From: an uncultured Armatimonadetes bacterium
Lineage (GTDB): Bacteria; Armatimonadota; Armatimonadia; Armatimonadales; Armatimonadaceae
Assembly (NCBI GenBank): GCA_903910385.1
Contig: CAIVZM010000011.1
Span: forward strand, 15,203-79,202
Reading direction: 5' to 3'
Length of the DNA: 64,000 bases
Below are positions 9,170 to 31,772 of this stretch, piece after piece. Positions within the stretch are counted from its first letter, which is position 1. Every line of letters starts with the position of its first letter. The notes under the pieces were generated by a model. The model was not told the origin of the DNA and ran no database searches. It saw only the letters and a list, made by a program, of their open reading frames with translations. The translations under genes and the position numbers were made by a program.

Positions 9170-11227
9170 TTAGAGGGTTGGCACATTACGCTCCAGTTCC
9201 TGAAGCCACACGGTGGCGGAACTATCGGAAGGCGCGCGCCAGTCGCCACGCGGGGAAAGCGAACCACCGGAACCAACCTTGGGGGAGTTGGGGACGCACG
9301 AGCGCTTGAACTGCGAGGTCTGGAAGAATCGGAACAGGAAGACGCCGAGCCACTTTTTGATCGTCGGCAGATCATAAGCGACCCGCTTCTCCTGAGGAAC
9401 GGAATCCGGCCAGGCGCCCTGATCGGCATCCGACCAGGCATGGAACGCCAGATAAGCCACCTTCGAGGGGCGGAAACCGTACCGACTGATGTAGTACACG
9501 TTGAAATCCTGCAGGTTGTACGGTCCGATGGTCGCTTCGGTGCTTTGCGCGGGAGCGTCCTTATCGCCCTTATCGTGCGGGACAAGCTCCGGGGAGATTT
9601 CCGTTTCGACAATCGAAGTCAGATAGCCGCTGGTGCGTTCATTGAATTGCGTGGTTTCTACTGACCAGCGAATCAGATGCTGAATCAGAGTTTTCGGCAC
9701 TGAAGCGTTCACATTGTAGTGGCTCATATGGTCACCGACGCCGTAGGTGCACCAACCCAGCGCCAGTTCGGACAAATCTCCGGTTCCTAACACCAGAGCG
9801 TTCTGGAAATTGGCAAGCCGGAAAAGAATCGACGTTCGCTGTCCTGCCTGAACATTCTCAAAGGTGACATCATAAACAGGTTCGCCGTTATGGAAGGGGT
9901 GCCCGATATCGCGGAGCATTTGCAGACACGACGGTTTGATATCGATTTCCTGCGCGGTCACGCCGAGGGATTCCATCAGGCCGAGGGCATTCTTCAAGGT
10001 GCGGTCAGAGGTAGCGAAGCCGGGCATGGTGTACGCGAGAATATTTGTTCGCGGCAGTCCCAGTCTATCCATCGTTTTCGCGGCGACGATCAACGCCTGT
10101 GTAGAATCCAGACCGCCGGAAACGCCGATCACGAGACGGGAAATGCCGGAGGATTGCAGACGCTTCATCAGCCCATGTACCTGAATGTTATATGCCTCAT
10201 AGCACCGCTCATCGCGCTTTGCGGCATCCGCAGGGACAAAGGGAAAGCGGGCGACCGTACGATTCAGCAGGGTCTCAGCAGGAATCTCGAACGCGAAATC
10301 GATTGTCCGTATCGCTTTCAGACGTTCGCGGAAATCATGGCGAGCGTCCCCGAAGGAGGTCAAACGCATCCGCTCTTGCACCAGTTTTTCGACATCGATA
10401 TCGGCGAAGAGAATATCTTCCTCCGGCGAAAATCGCTCGGATTCGGCTAAAACGCCGCCATTCTCGCAGATGATCGCGTGCCCATCCCAGGCTAAATCTG
10501 TGGTGCTTTCCCCCGGTCCCGCCGCCGAATAAAGGTACGCCGCGACGCAACGCCCGGATTGCCCCATACACAGGTCGCGCCGATAATCCGCCTTGCCAAC
10601 CGTGATATTGGAGGCGGAAAGGTTGCAAAGAAGAGTAGCGCCCGCCATCGCGCCAAAGGTGGAAGGCGGCAACGGCGTCCACACATCTTCACAAATTTCG
10701 GCGAACAAAACGAAGTCAGGTAGTGTCTCCGCACGGAATACCAGATCGTCCCCGAACGGGATACGCTGTCCAAACAGGGTAATTTCGCGATCAATCGCCT
10801 CTCGCGCCGCCGCAAACTGACGCTTTTCGTAGAACTCCCGGTAGTTAGGCAGATACGACTTCGGCGTGATTCCCAGAATCCGCCCGCGATAGACAATCGC
10901 CGCCGTATTGAACAGCCGACCGGAAACGCGCAACGGCAGACCAACCAGCAAAACAGGCGTCAATGCTCGTGACGCTTCCACGATGGACTGTAATCCCTGC
11001 AATGTCGCTTCCAGGAGCGCATCCTGATGGAACAGGTCATCATTCGTGTAGGCAGAAATCCCCATCTCCGGAAACAATGCCACTGCCGCCCCGCCCTCGG
11101 ACGCCCGCTTCGCCAGACCGATCGTCTGTTCCGCATTGTACACAGGGTCTGCTACTCGTACCGTCGGGACGCATACCGCCGCCCGCACAAACCCGTGCGA
11201 ATACAGCGAAAAGAAGGATTCCGTCAT
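9170..11227 (-). CDS. nadE: glutamine-dependent NAD+ synthetase (nitrilase domain + NAD synthetase domain)
   Basis: N-terminal C-N hydrolase domain plus a C-terminal NAD synthetase P-loop (GVSGGLDS) and a conserved tail ([20 protein letters not shown]). Start set at MTESFF, 72 codons in from the track start. TATACT lies 6 nt upstream of the ATG. Confidence 0.85.
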
Positions 11228-24312: not shown

Positions 24313-25170
24313 TCAGAGACGGTAGATGAGCGCCGCATTGTCATGAAACAAGTTTCGTTTTTCGGCTTCCGACCAATCCGCTATGATCTCGTCCAGTATA
24401 CCTTTCCATTCGGTCAAGCTGGCGTACAGGGTGCAGACCGGCCAATCACTGCCAAATAGCAAGCGATCCTTCCCAAAAGCCTCTGCACAGTGACGGACAA
24501 TCGGTTCCAGCGTTTCGGCGGAAGGAATTCCGGTGGGCGAAGAACCGACGATACCGGACACTTTACAGTAGACGTTCGGACATTGCGCCAGGACAGCGAG
24601 CGCCATTTCCCATAAAGCGCGATCTTTGCTCTCCCGTCCGGGCGCGCCACAGTGATCGAGAATGAAGCGGGTATCCGGGCGCTGTCTCGCTAACATCGCC
24701 GCTTCCTGCAGTTCATCTCGTCCGACCAGCAAATCACAGCAAAGGTTCGCTTCCCCCAGATTCTTCGCTAGTTGCAGGAAAGGTTCATTCAGTAGAGGAG
24801 AGGTTCCCACCTGACGATGGATCGCAGGTCGAACGCCTTTCAATCCCGAATGCGAGGAAAACGTTGCGATAACGTCCCGGTAATCTTCGTGCAAGGGATC
24901 AATACTGATGACTGCGCCTGCGATAATCGCATCTTTCTGTTGCGCCTCCAGAATCCATTCCGATTCCTCGTAGCGATACTCCGCCGTGACTCCGGACTCG
25001 ACATAGATCGCCGCCTCAAGGGAAATGCCCCTCGTCGCCGCCTCATAGTCTTCGCGAGTGAAATCCCGCGCCAGCGCTCCGCTCAACCAAGGGCGGTCAA
25101 ACTGCGTCGTTGTCCAGAGATGAAAATGAGAATCAATAATATTAATATAATCAATAACAGATGATGTCAT
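24313..25170 (-). CDS. amidohydrolase-2 family metal-dependent hydrolase (TIM barrel)
   Basis: DSHFHLW near the N-terminus and LFGSDWP near the C-terminus (Amidohydro_2 signature). Confidence 0.65.
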   Translation of the reverse strand: MTSSVIDYINIIDSHFHLWTTTQFDRPWLSGALARDFTREDYEAATRGISLEAAIYVESGVTAEYRYEESEWILEAQQKDAIIAGAVISIDPLHEDYRDVIATFSSHSGLKGVRPAIHRQVGTSPLLNEPFLQLAKNLGEANLCCDLLVGRDELQEAAMLARQRPDTRFILDHCGAPGRESKDRALWEMALAVLAQCPNVYCKVSGIVGSSPTGIPSAETLEPIVRHCAEAFGKDRLLFGSDWPVCTLYASLTEWKGILDEIIADWSEAEKRNLFHDNAALIYRL

Positions 25171-25202
25171 GAGCGTTTTGGGTTATCTTCCACCTAATTG
25201 AT

Positions 25203-25232
25203 AGGCTGATCAATATTATCAGGCTGATCAAT
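25203..25232. repeat. direct repeat AGGCTGATCAAT x2 (6-nt spacer), each containing TGATCA palindrome
   Basis: In the AT-rich divergent region at the left edge of the low-GC island, upstream of the LuxR-like gene. Confidence 0.55.
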
Positions 25233-25323
25233 GTAGCATTATGTTATAATTAGCCATATACTGATATCAAAACTTTAATAACTGATTATACATATTAAAA
25301 TAAGTTGAGAGTGAGAAATAGAG

Positions 25324-25614
25324 ATGCCCGAAGTCAGTAGCGATTCCCAGGATGTTGATTGCCCGTTGCCCAATTACTTGTACCAGTTGCTCAAAGCGTC
25401 AGCAAGACTATGTAGCATGGATTCAAAATTGCTCGCCCAAAATTTGGGGCGAACGCGCAGTACAATTAATACTGAATTCAGAGAGATCGCCAAAAGGCTT
25501 GGTACACACAGCCGTTGCGAAGCAATTTTTGTCGCCCTCCGTTATGGCTGGGTTAAATTGCCTCCACCGGAAAAACCTTTTCTCCTGCATAGTGTGTACG
25601 AAAAGGAAGAATAA
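25324..25614 (+). CDS. small LuxR/GerE-type HTH protein (no receiver or ligand domain)
   Basis: 96 aa. C-terminal RTRSTINTEFREIAKRLGTHSRCEAIFVALRYGWV fits the LuxR_C HTH pattern (L.IS..TV..H..NI..KLGV.SR.EA...A...G). Confidence 0.5.
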   Translation: MPEVSSDSQDVDCPLPNYLYQLLKASARLCSMDSKLLAQNLGRTRSTINTEFREIAKRLGTHSRCEAIFVALRYGWVKLPPPEKPFLLHSVYEKEE

Positions 25615-25739
25615 AAGAAAACTCTGCACGACGGGCGCAGCGCCCAAAATTGGGTATTGTATTTTTGATCAGATCTGCATAAGATCATTTATCTCAGCGA
25701 AGGTCTGGAACCATCCACTTCGGGAAGCAGGAAATTGTA

Positions 25740-27029
25740 GTGTCAAGGCTGTTGATCATTCTGCCTACCTATAATGAATGTGAAAATTTGCCGCGTATAA
25801 CGAGCGCCCTGCTTAGGTTATTGCCGGAAGCGCATCTGCTGGTTGTGGATGACTCTTCGCCCGATGGTACAGGCAATATTGCTGACGAATTGGCGCGACA
25901 TGAGAATCGTCTTTATGTATTGCACCGTCCCCGCAAAGAGGGTTTAGGGCGCGCTTACATTTCTGGGTTTCAATGGGGATTGGCTCATGAGTATACCCAT
26001 TTCGCTCAGATGGATGTGGATGGCTCCCATCGCCCGCAAGACCTTCTTAACTTGCTCCCTATTCTGGACAAGGCGGATGTTGTTATTGGCTCCCGCTTCA
26101 TTCCAGGAGGACGAATTGAGCGCTGGCCTTTGTGGCGACATTTGCTCAGTTTGGCTGGCGGCTTGTACATCCGTACAATTTTGCATTTATCAATTGGTGA
26201 TGTGACAAGCGGGTTCAAATGTCTTCGACGGTCAGCGCTCGAAGGTTTACATTTATCGGAGATTGGCGCCGTCGGATATTGCTTTCAATGCGAGATGAAT
26301 TATCACTGGGCTTCCTTGAACCTACTCGTCGTAGAAGTTCCCATAGTGTTTATGCCTCGAGTTGCTGGTCGCTCGAAAATTTCTACCGCCGTTATTAGTG
26401 AGGCATTATGTTCTCCCTGGCGTTTACGTAGGCAATCGCCATTAAAAAGAACTACGTGGTGCAATACCCTAAATTGGGTATTGCCCCTTGTGTTGAATTC
26501 TATTATATTGCCATCAAAAAACTTGCTATGTTCAATGGTGAATCGAAAGACAATTATGTCACCACAACTCCAGAGTCGCTACTTTGGTCTTAGACATTTC
26601 AATCTTTATATCTCCCTGACACTTCTGTCAACGATTTTCTTGATCGCCGCCTTCGCGAAAATGCAACGGTTTAGCGAACTTCAGGCGACGATAGTTGCAT
26701 CGCGTCTTGTCCCGGATTTATTGACCTTAGCAGTCGCCCGATTAGTTATTGGCGCGGAGTTAGTAGTCGCTACGTTTATCTGGTTACCATCTTGGCGGGT
26801 GGCGACGCTATGCGTTCTTTCGCTGTTAGCAAGCGTTTTTGCGAGTTATTCCGCTTGGCGCGGACTGATGGGGATACAAGTCCCCTGTCACTGTTTTGGA
26901 ATTTTGTATAGCCTTGCTCCTTGGCAAGGTATAGCACTCAATCTGATATTACTGGTTGTCGTAGCGAATCTTTATACTTTGGGGCTTAATCCTACGAGGA
27001 ATTCTACACCCAACATATTCGTCAGATAA
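25740..27029 (+). CDS. polyprenol-phosphate mannose/glucose synthase (Dpm1/Ppm1-type GT2) fused to C-terminal 4-TM MauE/DoxX-like domain
   Basis: Residues 1-230 align motif-by-motif with DPM synthases (ILPTYNE.ENL; VVDDSSPDGTG; GSRFIPGG; VEVPI.F..R.AGRSK). Residues about 250-429 have four TM helices with PCHCFG, resembling the MauE CGCFG motif. A GtrA-like flippase domain is the alternative. Confidence 0.75.
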   Translation: MSRLLIILPTYNECENLPRITSALLRLLPEAHLLVVDDSSPDGTGNIADELARHENRLYVLHRPRKEGLGRAYISGFQWGLAHEYTHFAQMDVDGSHRPQDLLNLLPILDKADVVIGSRFIPGGRIERWPLWRHLLSLAGGLYIRTILHLSIGDVTSGFKCLRRSALEGLHLSEIGAVGYCFQCEMNYHWASLNLLVVEVPIVFMPRVAGRSKISTAVISEALCSPWRLRRQSPLKRTTWCNTLNWVLPLVLNSIILPSKNLLCSMVNRKTIMSPQLQSRYFGLRHFNLYISLTLLSTIFLIAAFAKMQRFSELQATIVASRLVPDLLTLAVARLVIGAELVVATFIWLPSWRVATLCVLSLLASVFASYSAWRGLMGIQVPCHCFGILYSLAPWQGIALNLILLVVVANLYTLGLNPTRNSTPNIFVR

Positions 27030-27182
27030 ATCTGACTTATACAGTGTCGTTTTCCTCAGAGGCAATATACGGTGGGAAGCCACAGCGAAACTTACTGATT
27101 CCTAACGACTGGCAACAAATTACCAATAATAGACGCATCGTTTTCTTTGTTAAAAGGACTGTAAATGTTAAGGAGGGTCGAA

Positions 27183-27620
27183 ATGTATCGTTCTCTTGCG
27201 ATCAGTTGCGTAATGGGGCTCTGTCTGTCACTATACGCCATAACTTCAACGGGCGCCGCGACAATACCACAGAGGTCGGGATTTATGTCACGCCCATTGA
27301 GTGCGGAGGAAATGAAGGATACAGGTGGGCGGGGCTACAGTTGCGATAAAACTATCTGTCAAGTCCCAGACGGGACATACCCATGCATACCTTGGTATGT
27401 CGGTGGCACTTGGCAATATAGCTATACAAACTCATATAATCCAGGTTTGACTTGTCGACAAAACAACCAAGATCCCAACTCTACCTGTGTACAGTTCTCT
27501 AAATGGTGTTCATGGACACAGTATTATCAAACGACTAACTGTACGGATATTCCCTACACTTCAACACACACCATGAATAACTTCTGTAGCGGAGGTAATG
27601 CAACGCATCCAACACCATAG
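27183..27620 (+). CDS. small secreted Cys-rich protein (8 Cys in mature region; Trp/Tyr/Thr/Asn-rich)
   Basis: ATG at 27183 with AAGGAGGG 5 nt upstream. Signal peptide MYRSLAISCVMGLCLSLYAITSTGAA. Mature part has 8 Cys, 3 N-x-T sequons, a GG site (LSAEEMKDTGG) and almost no charged residues. Confidence 0.65.
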   Translation: MYRSLAISCVMGLCLSLYAITSTGAATIPQRSGFMSRPLSAEEMKDTGGRGYSCDKTICQVPDGTYPCIPWYVGGTWQYSYTNSYNPGLTCRQNNQDPNSTCVQFSKWCSWTQYYQTTNCTDIPYTSTHTMNNFCSGGNATHPTP

Positions 27621-27708
27621 CTCAGTAATAAAAAAGGGAATATCGTCTTCTATACCCCCTGGCAGGGGGTCCATATCCTACCAAGGGGTAAGCCTACAAA
27701 TCAACAAA

Positions 27709-28773
27709 ATGAACATTACATATACAAAAAACCATTTGTCATGGACGATACTCGTCGTTTTCTTGATTGCTTTTCTGCCTGTTAGGGCAATATCTCAAAA
27801 TAGCGTACGCCCGTCTATCTCCGATATAATTCAGGCGCATCAACAAAGGCGTGAGATTTTGAATGCTGTCTTTACGTTTGAATATAATAATAGTTGGATT
27901 CTTCCTCTACCTGGGGGGAAAGAAACAGGGAATGCGGCGGAGGCAGTGTTAGGCGAATTTTATATTTTCCAATCTATACAGAATAATGTCGATCCTGCTA
28001 ATCAAATGCCTATCTTTGTGTACGATGGAACCCAAACGCATTTATTGAGTAATGTCTCTTTGAACACTTCTACTGGCAAGTTAGATGGCGGTCAAGGTCA
28101 GCAAAGAGATACGGCAGTTGACGGAAAGAAAAATTCTCTTTATGGGCCGGCTGAATTTGGTTTTAAGATAGAGGGCGATTGGATCTGCGACGTTTTGCAA
28201 CCTTCGTTTAAAATGGTTTCTATCTCCGATGACATAGGGAACGGAAAACTATACGAGTATTTGGGCCAATATCGGAACACTCCTTTACGATTGACTTTCG
28301 CTCCCAAATATAACTACGCCTGTATCAAAGCGGAGTGGAAATCCAGCGCCACCAGAACTATAATTTTTGAAGCGGCGAATTTTATTAATGATCACGGTCT
28401 TTGGTTCGCCCAAACGGGTAGCATGCGGACGATTGACACTCAAAAGAATGGCGTAAAGTTCACAGCGGGTCAATCTGTCATTTTCTCTGATTATCAGATC
28501 AATAACGCTCGTCTTACACTGGCTAACCAATTATCCGAGGCTACCTTTCAAGTGCGCTTGGCTAAAGGGAGTCAAGTGTTCGATCAAGACCGAAGAACTG
28601 TTTACAAAGTTGGGGAGAACAATGAGAAGTTCGAAGATAAAGAAATGGTGCGGCTGATGAAGCTGAACCGCCTGCCAATGGCGATAGGCTGGTTATTTAT
28701 AGGGAGTATGACCACACTGCTTCTCCTGGGACTGGCGGCTTTCATCCGATGGCGACGACGCGATTCTTCATAA
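27709..28773 (+). CDS. secreted protein with C-terminal TM anchor and basic tail (sorting-signal-like)
   Basis: Start at MNITYTKNHLSWTILVVFLIAFLPVRA (signal peptide). C-terminus …LNRLPMAIGWLFIGSMTTLLLLGLAAFIRWRRRDSS is a motif/TM/RWRRR arrangement like PEP-CTERM or LPXTG tails. The 3' end overlaps the C39 gene by 25 nt. Confidence 0.55.
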   Translation: MNITYTKNHLSWTILVVFLIAFLPVRAISQNSVRPSISDIIQAHQQRREILNAVFTFEYNNSWILPLPGGKETGNAAEAVLGEFYIFQSIQNNVDPANQMPIFVYDGTQTHLLSNVSLNTSTGKLDGGQGQQRDTAVDGKKNSLYGPAEFGFKIEGDWICDVLQPSFKMVSISDDIGNGKLYEYLGQYRNTPLRLTFAPKYNYACIKAEWKSSATRTIIFEAANFINDHGLWFAQTGSMRTIDTQKNGVKFTAGQSVIFSDYQINNARLTLANQLSEATFQVRLAKGSQVFDQDRRTVYKVGENNEKFEDKEMVRLMKLNRLPMAIGWLFIGSMTTLLLLGLAAFIRWRRRDSS

Positions 28774-29243
28774 TACTGATTTGCCTGAGCGTGGGATGCT
28801 GGCTTCCCTCCTTATATGAGCCACCTCATATTCTTGCCCAACAATCATGTGGCGAACGTAGCTTGTTTGCAGCCGCAACTTCGATAGGACTACAGATCAC
28901 GGAAAAACAGGTGCAAGAAGTCCTCCCGGCAGGCGTGGAATCGTCTACGTTTGCTGAATTGCAAATCGCTGCCTCTCGATTAAACCTTCAAGCCGAGGGG
29001 CGTCAGCTAACTACCACCGACATTCTGCGGGGTCATTATATTGGTGTGTTGCACGTTGACCAAAATCATTTCGTGGCCTTGATAGGGCATGATGAAGACT
29101 CCGTAGAAATCATTAACCCTGTCTACCGCAATTTACTTAAAAAAGAATGCTGGTTTGTCAATGACTTGGAAACACGTTGGGATGGACGAATACTCATTTT
29201 GCAACGTCAAACAAGGATGAATGGTAGCAATGAATTCAAATAA
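28749..29243 (+). CDS. standalone peptidase C39-like (bacteriocin-processing-type cysteine peptidase) domain protein with N-terminal signal/anchor
   Basis: QQSCGERSLFAAATSIG (Gln/Cys of the C39 catalytic site) and NHFVALIGHDEDSVEIINP (His/Asp block, compare ComA LHYYVVTGQDKDSIHIADP). Hydrophobic N-terminus. 5' end overlaps the upstream gene and 3' end overlaps the DUF2079 gene. Confidence 0.7.
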   Translation: MATTRFFIILICLSVGCWLPSLYEPPHILAQQSCGERSLFAAATSIGLQITEKQVQEVLPAGVESSTFAELQIAASRLNLQAEGRQLTTTDILRGHYIGVLHVDQNHFVALIGHDEDSVEIINPVYRNLLKKECWFVNDLETRWDGRILILQRQTRMNGSNEFK

Positions 29244-30888
29244 TCAAATTGCTCCTATAGACATTCGATTCATGGTAAGAATGTTCACTCCACGAATCCA
29301 CAATGTTGTTCTAATAACATTAGTCTTTGTTTACGTGATAATTTTCTCTTGTTTGACCTGTAGCTTATTTGATCGCCTTGGTTACATGAATTTTGATATG
29401 GGGATTTTCGATCAGGCTACATATTTGATCAGTCATGAGGAAGAACCTTTTGTCACATTGCGCGGAACGCACATCCTTGCCGATCATTTTAGTGTTATTC
29501 TTTATCTGCTGGCTCCACTTTATGTCCTATTTCCGAGTCCTAAAACCTTGCTGGTAGTCCAGACCGTCGCATTGGCATCAGGCGTTTTTCCCGTCTATTG
29601 GCTGGCGAAGGAGAAAACAGGGACACCTTTTGTTGCTCTAATATTCTCTGTGGCTTATCTTTGTCACCCAGCGTTGCAGTGGAGCAATACCTATGAATTT
29701 CATCCAGATACCTTGGCTACGCCCGCATTTTTATTTGCGCTCTACTATTTGAACCAAAAGCGCTGGATCGGCTATTTTTCTGCACTTCTATTTGCAGCAC
29801 TAACGAAGGAGAATGTTGGTCTCACAATTTTCTTTATCGGATTTTGCCTTTTCCCTCATCAACGCAACATGGGAGTCGCCACCTTGATTACAGGAGTCGC
29901 CACACTATGTATAGCGTTAATGACAATACGCTACTTTAATGGAGCCCCCTCACCTTATGTTTACCTTTATTCGCAATGGGGAGCAACGCCGTTTGCTGTC
30001 GTTACACACTTTGTCCTTAATCCGAAACTACTGTTAACACTTTTTTGGAACAATTATAGCTATTTTGTTTTTCTGTTGACGCCATTACTTTTCCTTCCGC
30101 TTTTCGCACCAGAAAAACTCTTACCCGCGCTACCAGCCATAGCGACGAACCTGCTTAGTAATAGATCAGGAATGCATAATATAGAGGAACAATACACCGC
30201 ACTCATAACGCCATTTTTTATCGTCGCCGCTATTGCCGGTTACGAACGTTTATCTTACTGGATTCATCATCTCGCTAAAGGATACGCCGACTTGATCTGC
30301 TACGGGGTTTTGATGAATCTGTTATTGTGGGCATGCGGCGGCACTTTGCTCTGGGGACCCTTCTCCCGCGACACGGAGAGTCTGTATTCCGTTTTCTCAA
30401 TCGAAGAAGCTCGTGAAATTCGGGAAACGCTTTCTGTAATCCCGCCAACTGTGTCGGTGTCTGCGCAAATGGGATTAGGATCGCAACTTTCCCAGCGGCG
30501 ATTCATCTATCACTTTCCTAATCCCTTTTCGAAAAATGTTTGGGGAGGCACAAAACAGGCGTTAATTGAAGTCGCATCTATCGAGGGAGCTACCTTGTCT
30601 GCCGATTATAACAGTAACATTGCGCGTACGCCTGTTGAGTATATTGCCTTAGTCCCGCTCTCCTCATGCTTCCCTTTTTCCTTCGAAAGATATATGCATA
30701 CCATCACTCTTTTACTCAAAAATCCCGCTTATGGCGTCATCACAGTGGGAAAAAACGCCATTGTTTTACGGCGCGGCGCAAACCATAAATCAGGTATCCA
30801 ATTGCTGGCGCGGCGGGGGGATATTGTCACAGACGATTCAGAACAGGCGCTTTGGGCATGGCTTACCCGATCTCATTCGCGACGGTGA
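29221..30888 (+). CDS. DUF2079-family polytopic membrane protein (GT-C-fold glycosyltransferase-like)
   Basis: More than 10 TM helices. N-terminal block MNFDMGIFDQATYLISHEE…HFSVILYLLAPLYVLFPSPKTLLVVQTVALASGVFPVYWLA matches the DUF2079 signature (DLGIFDQA…DHFSPIL…PSP.TLL.VQ). Confidence 0.65.
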   Translation: MVAMNSNNQIAPIDIRFMVRMFTPRIHNVVLITLVFVYVIIFSCLTCSLFDRLGYMNFDMGIFDQATYLISHEEEPFVTLRGTHILADHFSVILYLLAPLYVLFPSPKTLLVVQTVALASGVFPVYWLAKEKTGTPFVALIFSVAYLCHPALQWSNTYEFHPDTLATPAFLFALYYLNQKRWIGYFSALLFAALTKENVGLTIFFIGFCLFPHQRNMGVATLITGVATLCIALMTIRYFNGAPSPYVYLYSQWGATPFAVVTHFVLNPKLLLTLFWNNYSYFVFLLTPLLFLPLFAPEKLLPALPAIATNLLSNRSGMHNIEEQYTALITPFFIVAAIAGYERLSYWIHHLAKGYADLICYGVLMNLLLWACGGTLLWGPFSRDTESLYSVFSIEEAREIRETLSVIPPTVSVSAQMGLGSQLSQRRFIYHFPNPFSKNVWGGTKQALIEVASIEGATLSADYNSNIARTPVEYIALVPLSSCFPFSFERYMHTITLLLKNPAYGVITVGKNAIVLRRGANHKSGIQLLARRGDIVTDDSEQALWAWLTRSHSRR

Positions 30889-30906
30889 AAGAGTAAGAGA
30901 AATCTA

Positions 30907-31725
30907 ATGAAAAAAGTTCAGACTATTAAAAAGCGGTCAATACAGGGTTTTACTTTAATCGAACTGCTCGTTGTTATCGCCATTGTCGCGCTACTGGCGG
31001 CCATAATCTTTCCCGTTTTCTCTCGAGTGCGTGAGAACGGCAGATCAAGCGTTTGCATGTCAAATATGCGGCAACTGGGTTCCGCCGTAACGATGTATAT
31101 TCAAGATTACGATGAGACATACCCAATGAATCGTATTCCCGACGCTAAACATCCGTTACAGGTCTGCCAGGTTAGTGGAAAGACCCCCGGAATGGACGGC
31201 AGCAGTCTGAATTGGCGACGTGTTACATTTCCCTACGTCAAGAATCTGAAACTTTACGAGTGTCCCTCAAACGGGTATGCCTGGGTTGCACCGGCGCCAG
31301 GAATTCAGGGCGGCGATGAATCAAATGCAGAATGGCCCGCCTCGCAAGACCATTTTCCGCTATCCTATGCGTACAATGGCAGTTTTTTTCATGAGTCCGC
31401 CCCCTGCAACATAGGCGAAGCATTACAAAGACCACGGCGCGCTACCGAAATCCGTGATTCGTCGCGTCTGCTCCTACTTTTGGAAACGCGGATCTCGCCG
31501 CCTGACCTCGGAAGTTGGTCGCTTACATGGGTATATGGCAACGATAAATCACATGGCGTATTTCAGGTCCATAATGGCACAACTAACTTTGTCTTTGTGG
31601 ATGGTCATGTCGCCGGCAAAAAATTAGCTACGACTTGCGATAATAAATACTGGTCAGATGGCTATCCTGATCCCGATTCGACTTGTAACGACCTCCCGAC
31701 CGAATTATTCGACGAGTACCGCTAA
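30907..31725 (+). CDS. prepilin-type N-terminal cleavage/methylation domain protein with DUF1559 (pseudopilin-like), island copy
   Basis: [38 protein letters not shown] class III signal. C-terminal FVFVDGHVAGKK (DUF1559 motif). Paralog of 17296..18195. Confidence 0.75.
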   Translation: MKKVQTIKKRSIQGFTLIELLVVIAIVALLAAIIFPVFSRVRENGRSSVCMSNMRQLGSAVTMYIQDYDETYPMNRIPDAKHPLQVCQVSGKTPGMDGSSLNWRRVTFPYVKNLKLYECPSNGYAWVAPAPGIQGGDESNAEWPASQDHFPLSYAYNGSFFHESAPCNIGEALQRPRRATEIRDSSRLLLLLETRISPPDLGSWSLTWVYGNDKSHGVFQVHNGTTNFVFVDGHVAGKKLATTCDNKYWSDGYPDPDSTCNDLPTELFDEYR

Positions 31726-31772
31726 GTTATATAATCTAAGTTAGATAATCTTTGGGAAGTGTCTATTTGAGT

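Follow-up and report, generated by a model that had tools for sequence, protein, structure and literature searches.

The window analysed here is a 64,000-nucleotide stretch of DNA from an uncultured Armatimonadetes bacterium (assembly GCA_903910385.1, contig CAIVZM010000011.1, positions 15,203 to 79,202 of the forward strand). On its plus strand, where the cassette genes and codons cited below also lie, positions 25740..27029 encode a 429-aa protein with a GTG start. The protein joins a cytoplasmic domain of the Ppm1/DPM1 type, a predicted polyprenol-phosphate mannose synthase of glycosyltransferase family 2 (GT2; aa 1-232, 25740..26435), through a disordered linker (aa 233-275, 26436..26564) to a MauE domain (aa 276-429, 26565..27029). 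In 2026, MauE was recognized as a widespread DsbB-like disulfide-forming enzyme (10.64898/2026.03.05.709764). Public annotations name the window protein only as a 'dolichol-phosphate mannosyltransferase'. Its gene is part of a small cassette of seven genes (about 25300-31750), which also encodes a regulator, a secreted Cys-rich protein, an exported protein with a membrane anchor, a C39-like cysteine peptidase, a DUF2079 membrane protein, and a pseudopilin-like protein. The fusion of the two domains is rare and the cassette recurrent, and both are apparently undescribed to date.

An intact and rare fusion gene

A model-made reading of the sequence (the original prediction) had described the two domains as uninterrupted by a stop and had suggested re-sequencing across their junction. 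The reading frame contains zero internal stops across its 429 codons (open reading frame (ORF) analysis), and the NCBI and ENA contigs both hold the identical 429-aa protein (protein cluster P0001). Variants from other samples, 99% identical and belonging to the same cluster, likewise read through the linker. A second lineage, P0002, is 45% identical overall, has the identical architecture, and also comprises 429 aa; it was found in four independent metagenome assemblies (L001, L002, L003, and L011). In the AlphaFold model, both domains are confident (mean predicted local distance difference test score (pLDDT) of 86.8, and >90 in the MauE domain), with aa 238-274 disordered (pLDDT <50). The linker is AT-rich, of low complexity, and structurally disordered, as might be expected had a missed stop or frameshift joined two adjacent genes. 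Such an assembly or sequencing artefact is effectively excluded by the recurrence of the architecture, both among independent assemblies and samples and, at 45% identity and equal total length, in a second lineage. The fusion is therefore real, and no re-sequencing is needed to establish the read-through.

The fusion is also rare. Among the best 120 whole-protein homologues, Glycos_transf_2 (PF00535) and MauE (PF07291) are combined in only two clusters, P0001 and P0002; the remaining homologues stand alone at lengths of 236-294 aa, and many bear the name polyprenol monophosphomannose synthase. When only the C-terminal half served as query, a word-indexed search returned a single relative, and an exhaustive profile search was required. 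In an HMMER scan of 1.84 billion representatives, a profile of the MauE domain gave 3,720 matches, the best 150 of which were inspected. Within these 150, a MauE domain stands at the C-terminus of a long protein only in P0002 and P0001, in agreement with the unusual coupling that had been proposed. In this MauE branch, each of the seven longer relatives is a fusion of MauE with DsbA or thioredoxin, which shows the usual fusion partner and ties the branch independently to disulfide chemistry. No fusion between MauE and a glycosyltransferase was mentioned in the literature searched.

By family membership, residues 1-232 form an intact polyprenol-phosphate mannose synthase of the Ppm1/DPM1 type, with the corresponding predicted activity. 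The Pfam profile Glycos_transf_2 matches aa 6-168 (E 5.3e-23; 82.2 bits against a cutoff of 23.3), and the motifs from which a polyprenol-phosphate sugar synthase had originally been recognized (ILPTYNE, DDSSPDGTG, GSRF.PGG, and VEVPI.F..R.AGRSK) are all present. The top stand-alone matches are 45-55% identical to it, and many carry the synthase name given above. In an alignment of 49 homologues, 57 of the 58 columns conserved at >=95% are identical in the window synthase, the exception being I214 in place of Met. The family-invariant residues retained include the DxD metal site D92-V-D94 and the nucleotide-binding DDSSPDGT. In structure, the catalytic domain matches solved polyprenyl-phosphate glycosyltransferases, with GtrB and ArnC ranking among the best. 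None of the NCBIfam equivalog thresholds was reached, the best score being that of PpgS (44 bits against a cutoff of 370). Judged from the sequence, the hexose is most likely mannose, taken from GDP-mannose. The closest stand-alone homologues have no membrane domain, and 105 of 118 are without a segment of transmembrane (TM) grade.

The membrane domain distinguishes the window protein from the known systems. For PfDPMS from Pyrococcus furiosus (PDB 5MLZ), a solved example of the Ppm1/DPM1 type, sequence similarity to the window protein ends at residue 231. The homology of this type III enzyme, which has a four-TM domain of its own, does not reach the membrane domain described here, which belongs to another family, MauE, and bears a redox CxC site. 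The GtrB-GtrA and ArnC systems resemble the predicted arrangement in that a cytoplasmic lipid-sugar synthase supplies a periplasmic glycosyltransferase of the GT-C class. However, GtrB and ArnC possess two C-terminal TM helices of their own, whereas the window protein has a redox domain instead, and no GtrA-like domain or gene was found in the window by Pfam. The architecture thus differs from the PfDPMS type, from GtrB/GtrA, and from the MauE-thioredoxin fusions.

On sequence grounds, residues about 276-415 constitute a bona fide MauE domain, as had been suspected. Pfam MauE (PF07291) matches aa 291-411 (E 1.2e-16; 61.6 bits against a gathering cutoff of 27) and spans profile positions 7-125 of 128. 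Hydropathy confirms the four TM helices that had been claimed, at about 287-305, 327-347, 352-372, and 391-412. A GtrA-like C-terminus had been named beforehand as the finding that would tell against a MauE-like domain; neither GtrA nor DoxX gave a Pfam match even at E<=1. Two MauE proteins have been shown to complement E. coli dsbB (10.64898/2026.03.05.709764). In this family, an essential CxC in the periplasmic TM3-TM4 loop forms the active site and precedes a conserved Phe-Gly pair; near the predicted quinone site, TM1 carries a conserved Lys and TM2 a conserved Glu (10.64898/2026.03.05.709764). The window domain is alike in all these respects, having four TM helices, a CxC-FG in the TM3-TM4 loop, a TM1 Lys, and a TM2 Glu. 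K307 (26658-26660) is conserved in all 74 aligned relatives and E340 (26757-26759) in 75 of 77, and the segment P382-C-H-C-F-G387, with C383-H-C385 at 26886-26894, sits between TM3 and TM4. The original prediction had correctly placed PCHCFG in this domain (aa 382-387) and had likened it to a CGCFG motif. The likeness holds for CxCFG, which is conserved among the aligned relatives, with X being His rather than Gly. For the family at large, X has been reported mostly as Gly or Ala; in this branch CHC is normal, the variants among 149 branch relatives including CSC (38), CHC (35), CNC (23), and CGC (15).

The CHC loop is predicted to face the periplasm, as in canonical MauE, because the segment before TM1 is basic (positive-inside analysis), the linker does not qualify as a conserved TM segment (KD19 maximum of 1.38 in the window and 0.35 in P0002), and the GT2 domain is necessarily cytoplasmic. 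Hydropathy, the positive-inside rule, and the location of the GT2 domain all agree on an N-in orientation. Two further differences separate the window domain from its described relatives. The fusions described for the family are with thioredoxin or DsbA, whereas here a cytoplasmic glycosyltransferase stands at the N-terminus. Furthermore, in contrast to the methylamine dehydrogenase (mau) cluster, the gene is not beside mauA, mauB, or mauD, its neighbours being the cassette genes.

The host cassette and its split counterparts

The cassette proteins in the window were assigned from ORF analysis and Pfam. Next to the fusion gene, the original prediction had pointed out an 8-Cys secreted protein, and the gene at 27165..27620 indeed encodes a protein with a signal peptide and 10 Cys, eight of them in the mature part. 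The protein consists of an N-terminal hydrophobic signal-like segment, a pro-region, and a mature part of 96 aa. Orthologues occupy the equal position in 10 other loci (L001, L004, L010, L012, L013, L014, L016, L020, L024, and L027; E 1e-9 between the window protein and that of L004). Throughout the family, seven of the eight Cys are invariant and one is nearly invariant; the signal-like segment, a conserved GxGYxC junction, and one Cys near the C-terminus are further family features. There is no Pfam match, and the Cys-rich proteins form an unannotated family of small secreted proteins. The mature window protein contains 24% Ser/Thr, three N-x-S/T sequons, and a WxxW motif, which do not in themselves identify a type of glycosylation. 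The segment preceding the junction (...LSAEEMKDTGG, followed by RGYSC) resembles a double-glycine leader, and a pro-region of double-glycine-like appearance is likewise seen before the junction in the other loci that have a C39 gene. The loci known to be without a C39 gene (L001 and L010) have the shortest pre-Cys regions, and L001 is also without the GxGY motif; with two C39-less loci only, this is suggestive of a tie between these features and the presence of C39.

The C39-like cysteine peptidase itself (28749..29243; 164 aa; Pfam Peptidase_C39 E 1.2e-7) is a stand-alone protein without ABC-transporter domains (Pfam). It is 40% identical to the L004 orthologue and had no phmmer match among PDB sequences. 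One relative is named 'bacteriocin/lantibiotic exporter with double-glycine peptidase domain' by JGI; the ABC part is absent. Because the catalytic residues are kept (Cys34 and His107 are invariant) and an N-terminal hydrophobic segment is present, the C39-like proteins are probably active and either exported or membrane-tethered.

Between the Cys-rich and C39 genes lies a gene for a cassette-specific exported protein with a C-terminal TM anchor (27598..28773, with the probable start at 27709), which belongs to no Pfam family. Its conserved C-terminus (about 28690-28770) reads GWLFxGSxxTLLxLG...RWRRR, that is, a motif, a TM helix, and a basic tail. Orthologues of about 350-390 aa are present in L001, L004, L010, L012-14, L016, L020, L024, and L027 (E 4e-23 against L001 and 6e-13 against L004). 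A profile search of the genome contigs with an alignment of these proteins found one locus only. The end of the protein resembles a C-terminal sorting signal; only weak matches to VPDSG-CTERM were obtained (E 0.04-0.11), and no sortase-like gene was seen near the gene.

The cassette opens with a gene for a small regulator of the LuxR/GerE helix-turn-helix (HTH) type (25324..25614). The GerE match of this 96-aa protein is weak (E 0.0023), and the alignment of HTH proteins displays the LuxR-type signature. Orthologues with 39-41% identity precede MauE in L001, L004, L024, and L027. The last conserved gene (30907..31725) encodes a DUF1559/N-methyl pseudopilin-like protein with six Cys (Pfam SBP_bac_10 and N_methyl). 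Its orthologues also end the cassette in other loci, with 52-53% identity in L001, L024, and L027 and 41% in L004.

The DUF2079 membrane protein (29221..30888; Pfam DUF2079 E 2.4e-58) is 48% identical between the window and L001. DUF2079 is a Pfam family to which no function has been assigned, and the literature searched contains no mention of it. By sequence, the protein matched no PDB chain, either as a single sequence or as a 60-sequence profile, and its fold was obtained from a model. This model, built from 60 homologues, has a pLDDT of 95.4 and a predicted TM-score (pTM) of 0.93. All 22 Foldseek matches in the PDB at E<=1e-3 were GT-C enzymes (TM-scores of 0.40-0.50), comprising STT3/OST, DPY19, ALG9, ALG12, AftA, ArnT, and PglB, with STT3, DPY19, and PglB at the top. 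Some DUF2079 homologues additionally carry precomputed PMT_2 matches. On the strength of the model, DUF2079 is confidently predicted to have the GT-C glycosyltransferase fold. Directly after its TM1, in the first external loop, lies an FDxGIFDQ motif, in which D59 is invariant and D64 nearly invariant, and this acidic motif may be catalytic. The matched GT-C glycosyltransferases use polyprenyl-linked donors. On account of its fold, DUF2079 is therefore a plausible consumer for the synthase product and is presumed to draw on lipid-linked sugar. DUF2079 is also found outside the cassette, in L025 and L026. In L025 (8001-16292), a homologue at 42% identity lies beside a 383-aa C39-domain protein, a CBM96-like protein, and an RHS/YD-repeat toxin, just downstream of cas1-cas2.

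The gene order recurs in L001; in L004-L009, L018, and L019; in L010; in L012/L021; in L013/L015; and in L014, L016, L020, L024, and L027. Among these, L010 is a metagenome-assembled genome labelled Terriglobia, and L027 is an Armatimonas sp. by NCBI names. Unrelated amidohydrolase and UvrB genes flank the window cassette, whose GC content of 0.456 compares with 0.55 on either side, the low value being shared by the GT2 and the MauE halves of the fusion gene. The GC deficit is smaller in the cassettes of L001, L024, and L027. The flanking genes vary between loci, and in L004 the cassette is followed by an IS605 OrfB/TnpB-like gene. The low GC, the varying flanks, and this transposon-type gene suggest that the cassette is horizontally mobile.

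In all lineages except the window's and that of L001 (at least seven), MauE has a gene of its own, which encodes about 150-165 aa and immediately follows that of the HTH protein. Cassettes of the L004 type contain separate genes for MauE and for a GT2. The latter lies at the far end (L004 8529-9305) and is preceded by a 608-aa polytopic protein (L004 6725-8551) with no Pfam match; these two stand in place of the DUF2079/Ppm1-like pair and may be a non-orthologous substitute for the glycosylation module. The GT2 gene that adjoins the L027 cassette is a different one and is convergently oriented. The fusion is a derived state confined to two related lineages. The core of the cassette consists of the regulator, MauE, the Cys-rich protein, the anchored protein, an optional C39 peptidase, the GT-C protein, and the pseudopilin-like protein; a dedicated synthase is a variable addition. 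L024 (7422-7892) and L027 (3638-4111) have an extra conserved gene of about 156 aa between C39 and DUF2079, which is absent from the window. This gene was considered as a candidate for a thioredoxin-like partner of MauE and rejected, as it encodes no Cys (it also has no Pfam match).

The split arrangement bears on whether the fused MauE is still an oxidase. It could instead be redox-dead, acting as a mere anchor or as a module for lipid-carrier binding or flipping analogous to GtrA. Ppm1-type enzymes need a membrane partner (PMC3460810), and for a domain predicted to bind isoprenoid quinone, binding of polyprenol is conceivable. However, K307, E340, and PCHCFG are retained in both fused lineages as in the stand-alone relatives, and similarity to GtrA is absent (Pfam). 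Moreover, the fused cassettes have no second MauE gene, while each split cassette has one. A redox-dead domain is accordingly disfavoured, and we regard it as very improbable.

A palindrome in the linker and the possibility of a free MauE protein

The linker has the lowest GC content in the cassette (0.38). Its coding sequence contains the perfect palindrome GCAATACCC-TAAATT-GGGTATTGC (26461..26484), and a degenerate copy, GCAGCGCCC-AAAATT-GGGTATTG (25637..25659), lies 81 nt upstream of the GTG start. Both are parts of a 26-nt direct repeat with 81% identity. In L001, the palindromes ATACCC-TGTTTA-GGGTAT (9922-9939) and ATACCC-CAAACA-GGGTAT (10715-10732) likewise lie upstream of the gene and in the linker, respectively. 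The exact pattern TACCC-N6-GGGTA is absent elsewhere in the window and in the other loci (about 260 kb examined). In split cassettes, comparable perfect palindromes precede the start of the free-standing MauE gene by 26-62 nt, namely TGCCCC-TAAACA-GGGGCA in L004 (3822-3839), ATGTCCC-ACTTTT-GGGACAT in L024 (4751-4770), and TATCCTA-ATTTT-TAGGATA in L027 (813-831). In a shuffle test, neither the 13-mer nor the palindrome (1-2 mismatches allowed) was significant alone; the argument is built on exact matches at homologous positions in two lineages and not on shuffle statistics. As the linker peptides of the two fused lineages do not align, the conserved entity is a DNA or RNA element. The palindrome is probably an operator of the LuxR-type regulator of the cassette or else an RNA hairpin, and it may resemble NarL-type 7-2-7 sites. 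No Rfam family was found within 25100-27300, and no tRNA genes were found in the window.

Each of the two fused genes has Met codons in frame 60-82 nt after the linker palindrome. In the window, these are the ATG codons of M269 (26544) and M276 (26565), spanning 26544..26567; in P0002, two consecutive Met codons occupy the equivalent position (L001 10809-10814). They are candidate starts of a free MauE of about 154-161 aa, a size at which the domain might be made besides the fusion. Judging by the sequence, the linker is probably the former region upstream of MauE. We infer that a Ppm1-like gene was inserted along with a copy of the element and that the old MauE start persists as M269/M276. 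A promoter-like TTGCCC-17-TATATT (26481-26509) overlaps the linker palindrome as a weak match (9/12), and promoter-like matches showed no enrichment over shuffles.

Taken to its limit, this evidence could mean that the ORF is fused while its products are largely separate: an internal promoter or operator, together with the start at M269/M276, would yield free MauE and the downstream genes, with read-through as a minor or incidental product. The palindrome common to two lineages with unalignable linker peptides, its counterparts before stand-alone MauE starts, the Met codons at a matching distance, the overlapping promoter-like sequence, and the disordered, AT-rich character of the linker all point in this direction. 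On the other hand, the frame has stayed open through about 130 nt of otherwise unconstrained sequence in both lineages, at 45% identity, which would be improbable without selection for the fused product. The promoter-like sequence is a weak match of a class that is not enriched, and internal initiation would in any case be compatible with a functional fusion. We therefore consider it unlikely that the two domains act mainly as separate polypeptides.

Predicted function and comparable systems

In our preferred reading, to which we assign a probability of roughly 0.6, the protein is predicted to be a bifunctional maturation enzyme of the inner membrane, created by a gene fusion within a conserved cassette. 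The cassette would yield a small, secreted, and probably glycosylated protein containing four disulfides. At the inner membrane, the cytoplasmic synthase would load a hexose onto polyprenol phosphate, and the lipid-linked sugar, once flipped, would serve as the donor for the DUF2079 GT-C enzyme in the periplasm. The MauE domain would act as a DsbB-like, probably quinone-linked disulfide generator, in which Cys383-His-Cys385 may oxidize the adjoining 8-Cys protein either directly or via a housekeeping DsbA-like carrier. It may also oxidize the 6-Cys pseudopilin-like protein. In addition, MauE would provide a membrane anchor for an otherwise anchorless synthase, as Ppm2/Lnt is proposed to do for mycobacterial Ppm1; the scarcity of TM-grade segments among stand-alone homologues (105 of 118 have none) and the Ppm2/Lnt precedent argue for this role. 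The original prediction had seen in the fusion a link between donor synthesis and oxidative folding. This link is now better grounded because MauE has been shown by experiment to be DsbB-like and because both functions co-occur as separate genes in the cassette elsewhere, and it is best read as a gene fusion in a maturation cassette and not as a new catalytic mechanism.

Several observations count against this reading. The L024 cassette is complete with no GT2 within 8 kb, and a dedicated synthase, hence also the fusion, is therefore not essential to the system. In L004-type loci, the GT2 is only 27% identical to that of the window and the accompanying 608-aa protein shows no similarity to DUF2079; the glycosylation module is therefore not strictly conserved. 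No thioredoxin-like partner gene is encoded among the cassette proteins (Pfam). Given the linker palindrome and Met codons, MauE may be made also, or mainly, as a separate protein. Finally, the acceptor of the sugar could be a glycan or a lipid instead of the Cys-rich protein.

This last point can be extended to a system in which the synthase and DUF2079 modify an envelope glycan or lipid, MauE serves unrelated proteins, and the fusion brings about co-regulation and anchoring only. GT-C enzymes often act on glycans or lipids, as do AftA and ArnT among the structural matches of DUF2079, and the occurrence of DUF2079 in L025 and L026 shows that it is not bound to the cassette. MauE, moreover, has been described as a generalist oxidase with predicted binding of isoprenoid quinone (10.64898/2026.03.05.709764). 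Set against this, the genes for the 8-Cys, anchored, and DUF2079 proteins keep their order beside MauE in many lineages, and the protein-modifying STT3, DPY19, and PglB are the top structural matches of DUF2079. Protein O-mannosylation dependent on Ppm1 is, furthermore, established in Actinobacteria (PMC3460810). A glycan or lipid acceptor thus seems fairly improbable to us.

If the preferred reading of a bifunctional maturation enzyme is carried further, the cassette might represent an undescribed periplasmic maturation system for a family of small 8-Cys proteins, in which Sec export, removal of the double-glycine-like pro-region by the exported stand-alone C39 peptidase, disulfide formation by a dedicated MauE, and glycosylation by DUF2079 converge on one substrate. 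We offer this extension only tentatively. Were it true, the system would be a diderm, lipid-carrier-dependent counterpart of glycocin biosynthesis, and the fused lineages would hold the donor synthase and the disulfide generator together as a physical maturation complex, a conceivable benefit of fusion beyond anchoring, stoichiometry, and co-expression. The pattern of fused and split genes provides a Rosetta-stone argument that periplasmic glycosylation and oxidative folding share one client. The argument names that client, the 8-Cys protein, and DUF2079 gains both a fold and a likely donor. MauE would here be a dedicated part of a substrate-specific cassette, covalently joined in two lineages to a synthase of lipid-linked sugar.

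The closest conceptual precedents are the glycocin clusters and the Lnt-Ppm1 fusion. Glycocin clusters, such as those for sublancin and glycocin F, encode a Cys-containing precursor, a GT2, a C39 double-glycine-type peptidase, and thiol-disulfide oxidoreductases (PMC12457901). The gene set of the window is similar, and the ...LSAEEMKDTGG before the first Cys of its precursor is reminiscent of a double-glycine leader. However, the glycocin GT2 glycosylates the peptide directly in the cytoplasm, whereas the window GT2 is of the lipid-carrier synthase type and paired with a GT-C enzyme. The glycocin C39 domain is part of an ABC exporter, in contrast to the stand-alone exported domain of 164 aa found here. 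Unlike glycocin precursors, the window precursor has a Sec-type signal and a mature part of about 96 aa with eight Cys. With a C39 protein devoid of ABC domains and a GT2 of the lipid-carrier synthase type, the cassette was not classified as a glycocin-type cluster of ribosomally synthesized and post-translationally modified peptides.

In another example, Rv2051c of M. tuberculosis is a fusion of Lnt with Ppm1, whereas M. smegmatis and C. glutamicum have separate ppm2 and ppm1 genes (PMC3460810). The Ppm1 of Corynebacterineae relies on the membrane enzyme Ppm2/Lnt, which is proposed to anchor and stimulate it, and both enzymes act on the same lipoproteins (PMC3460810). The parallel with the window is that a Ppm synthase is fused or operon-linked, depending on the lineage, to a polytopic membrane enzyme that performs another post-export modification of proteins and that, in Rv2051c, is the proposed anchor and stimulator of the synthase. 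The membrane partner in Rv2051c, however, is an apolipoprotein N-acyltransferase situated at the N-terminus, whereas that in the window is MauE at the C-terminus, and the two fusions differ in phylum and pathway. Besides mycobacterial Lnt-Ppm1, the window fusion would offer a second and independent case in which a Ppm1-type synthase has recruited a protein-maturation membrane enzyme as its anchor.

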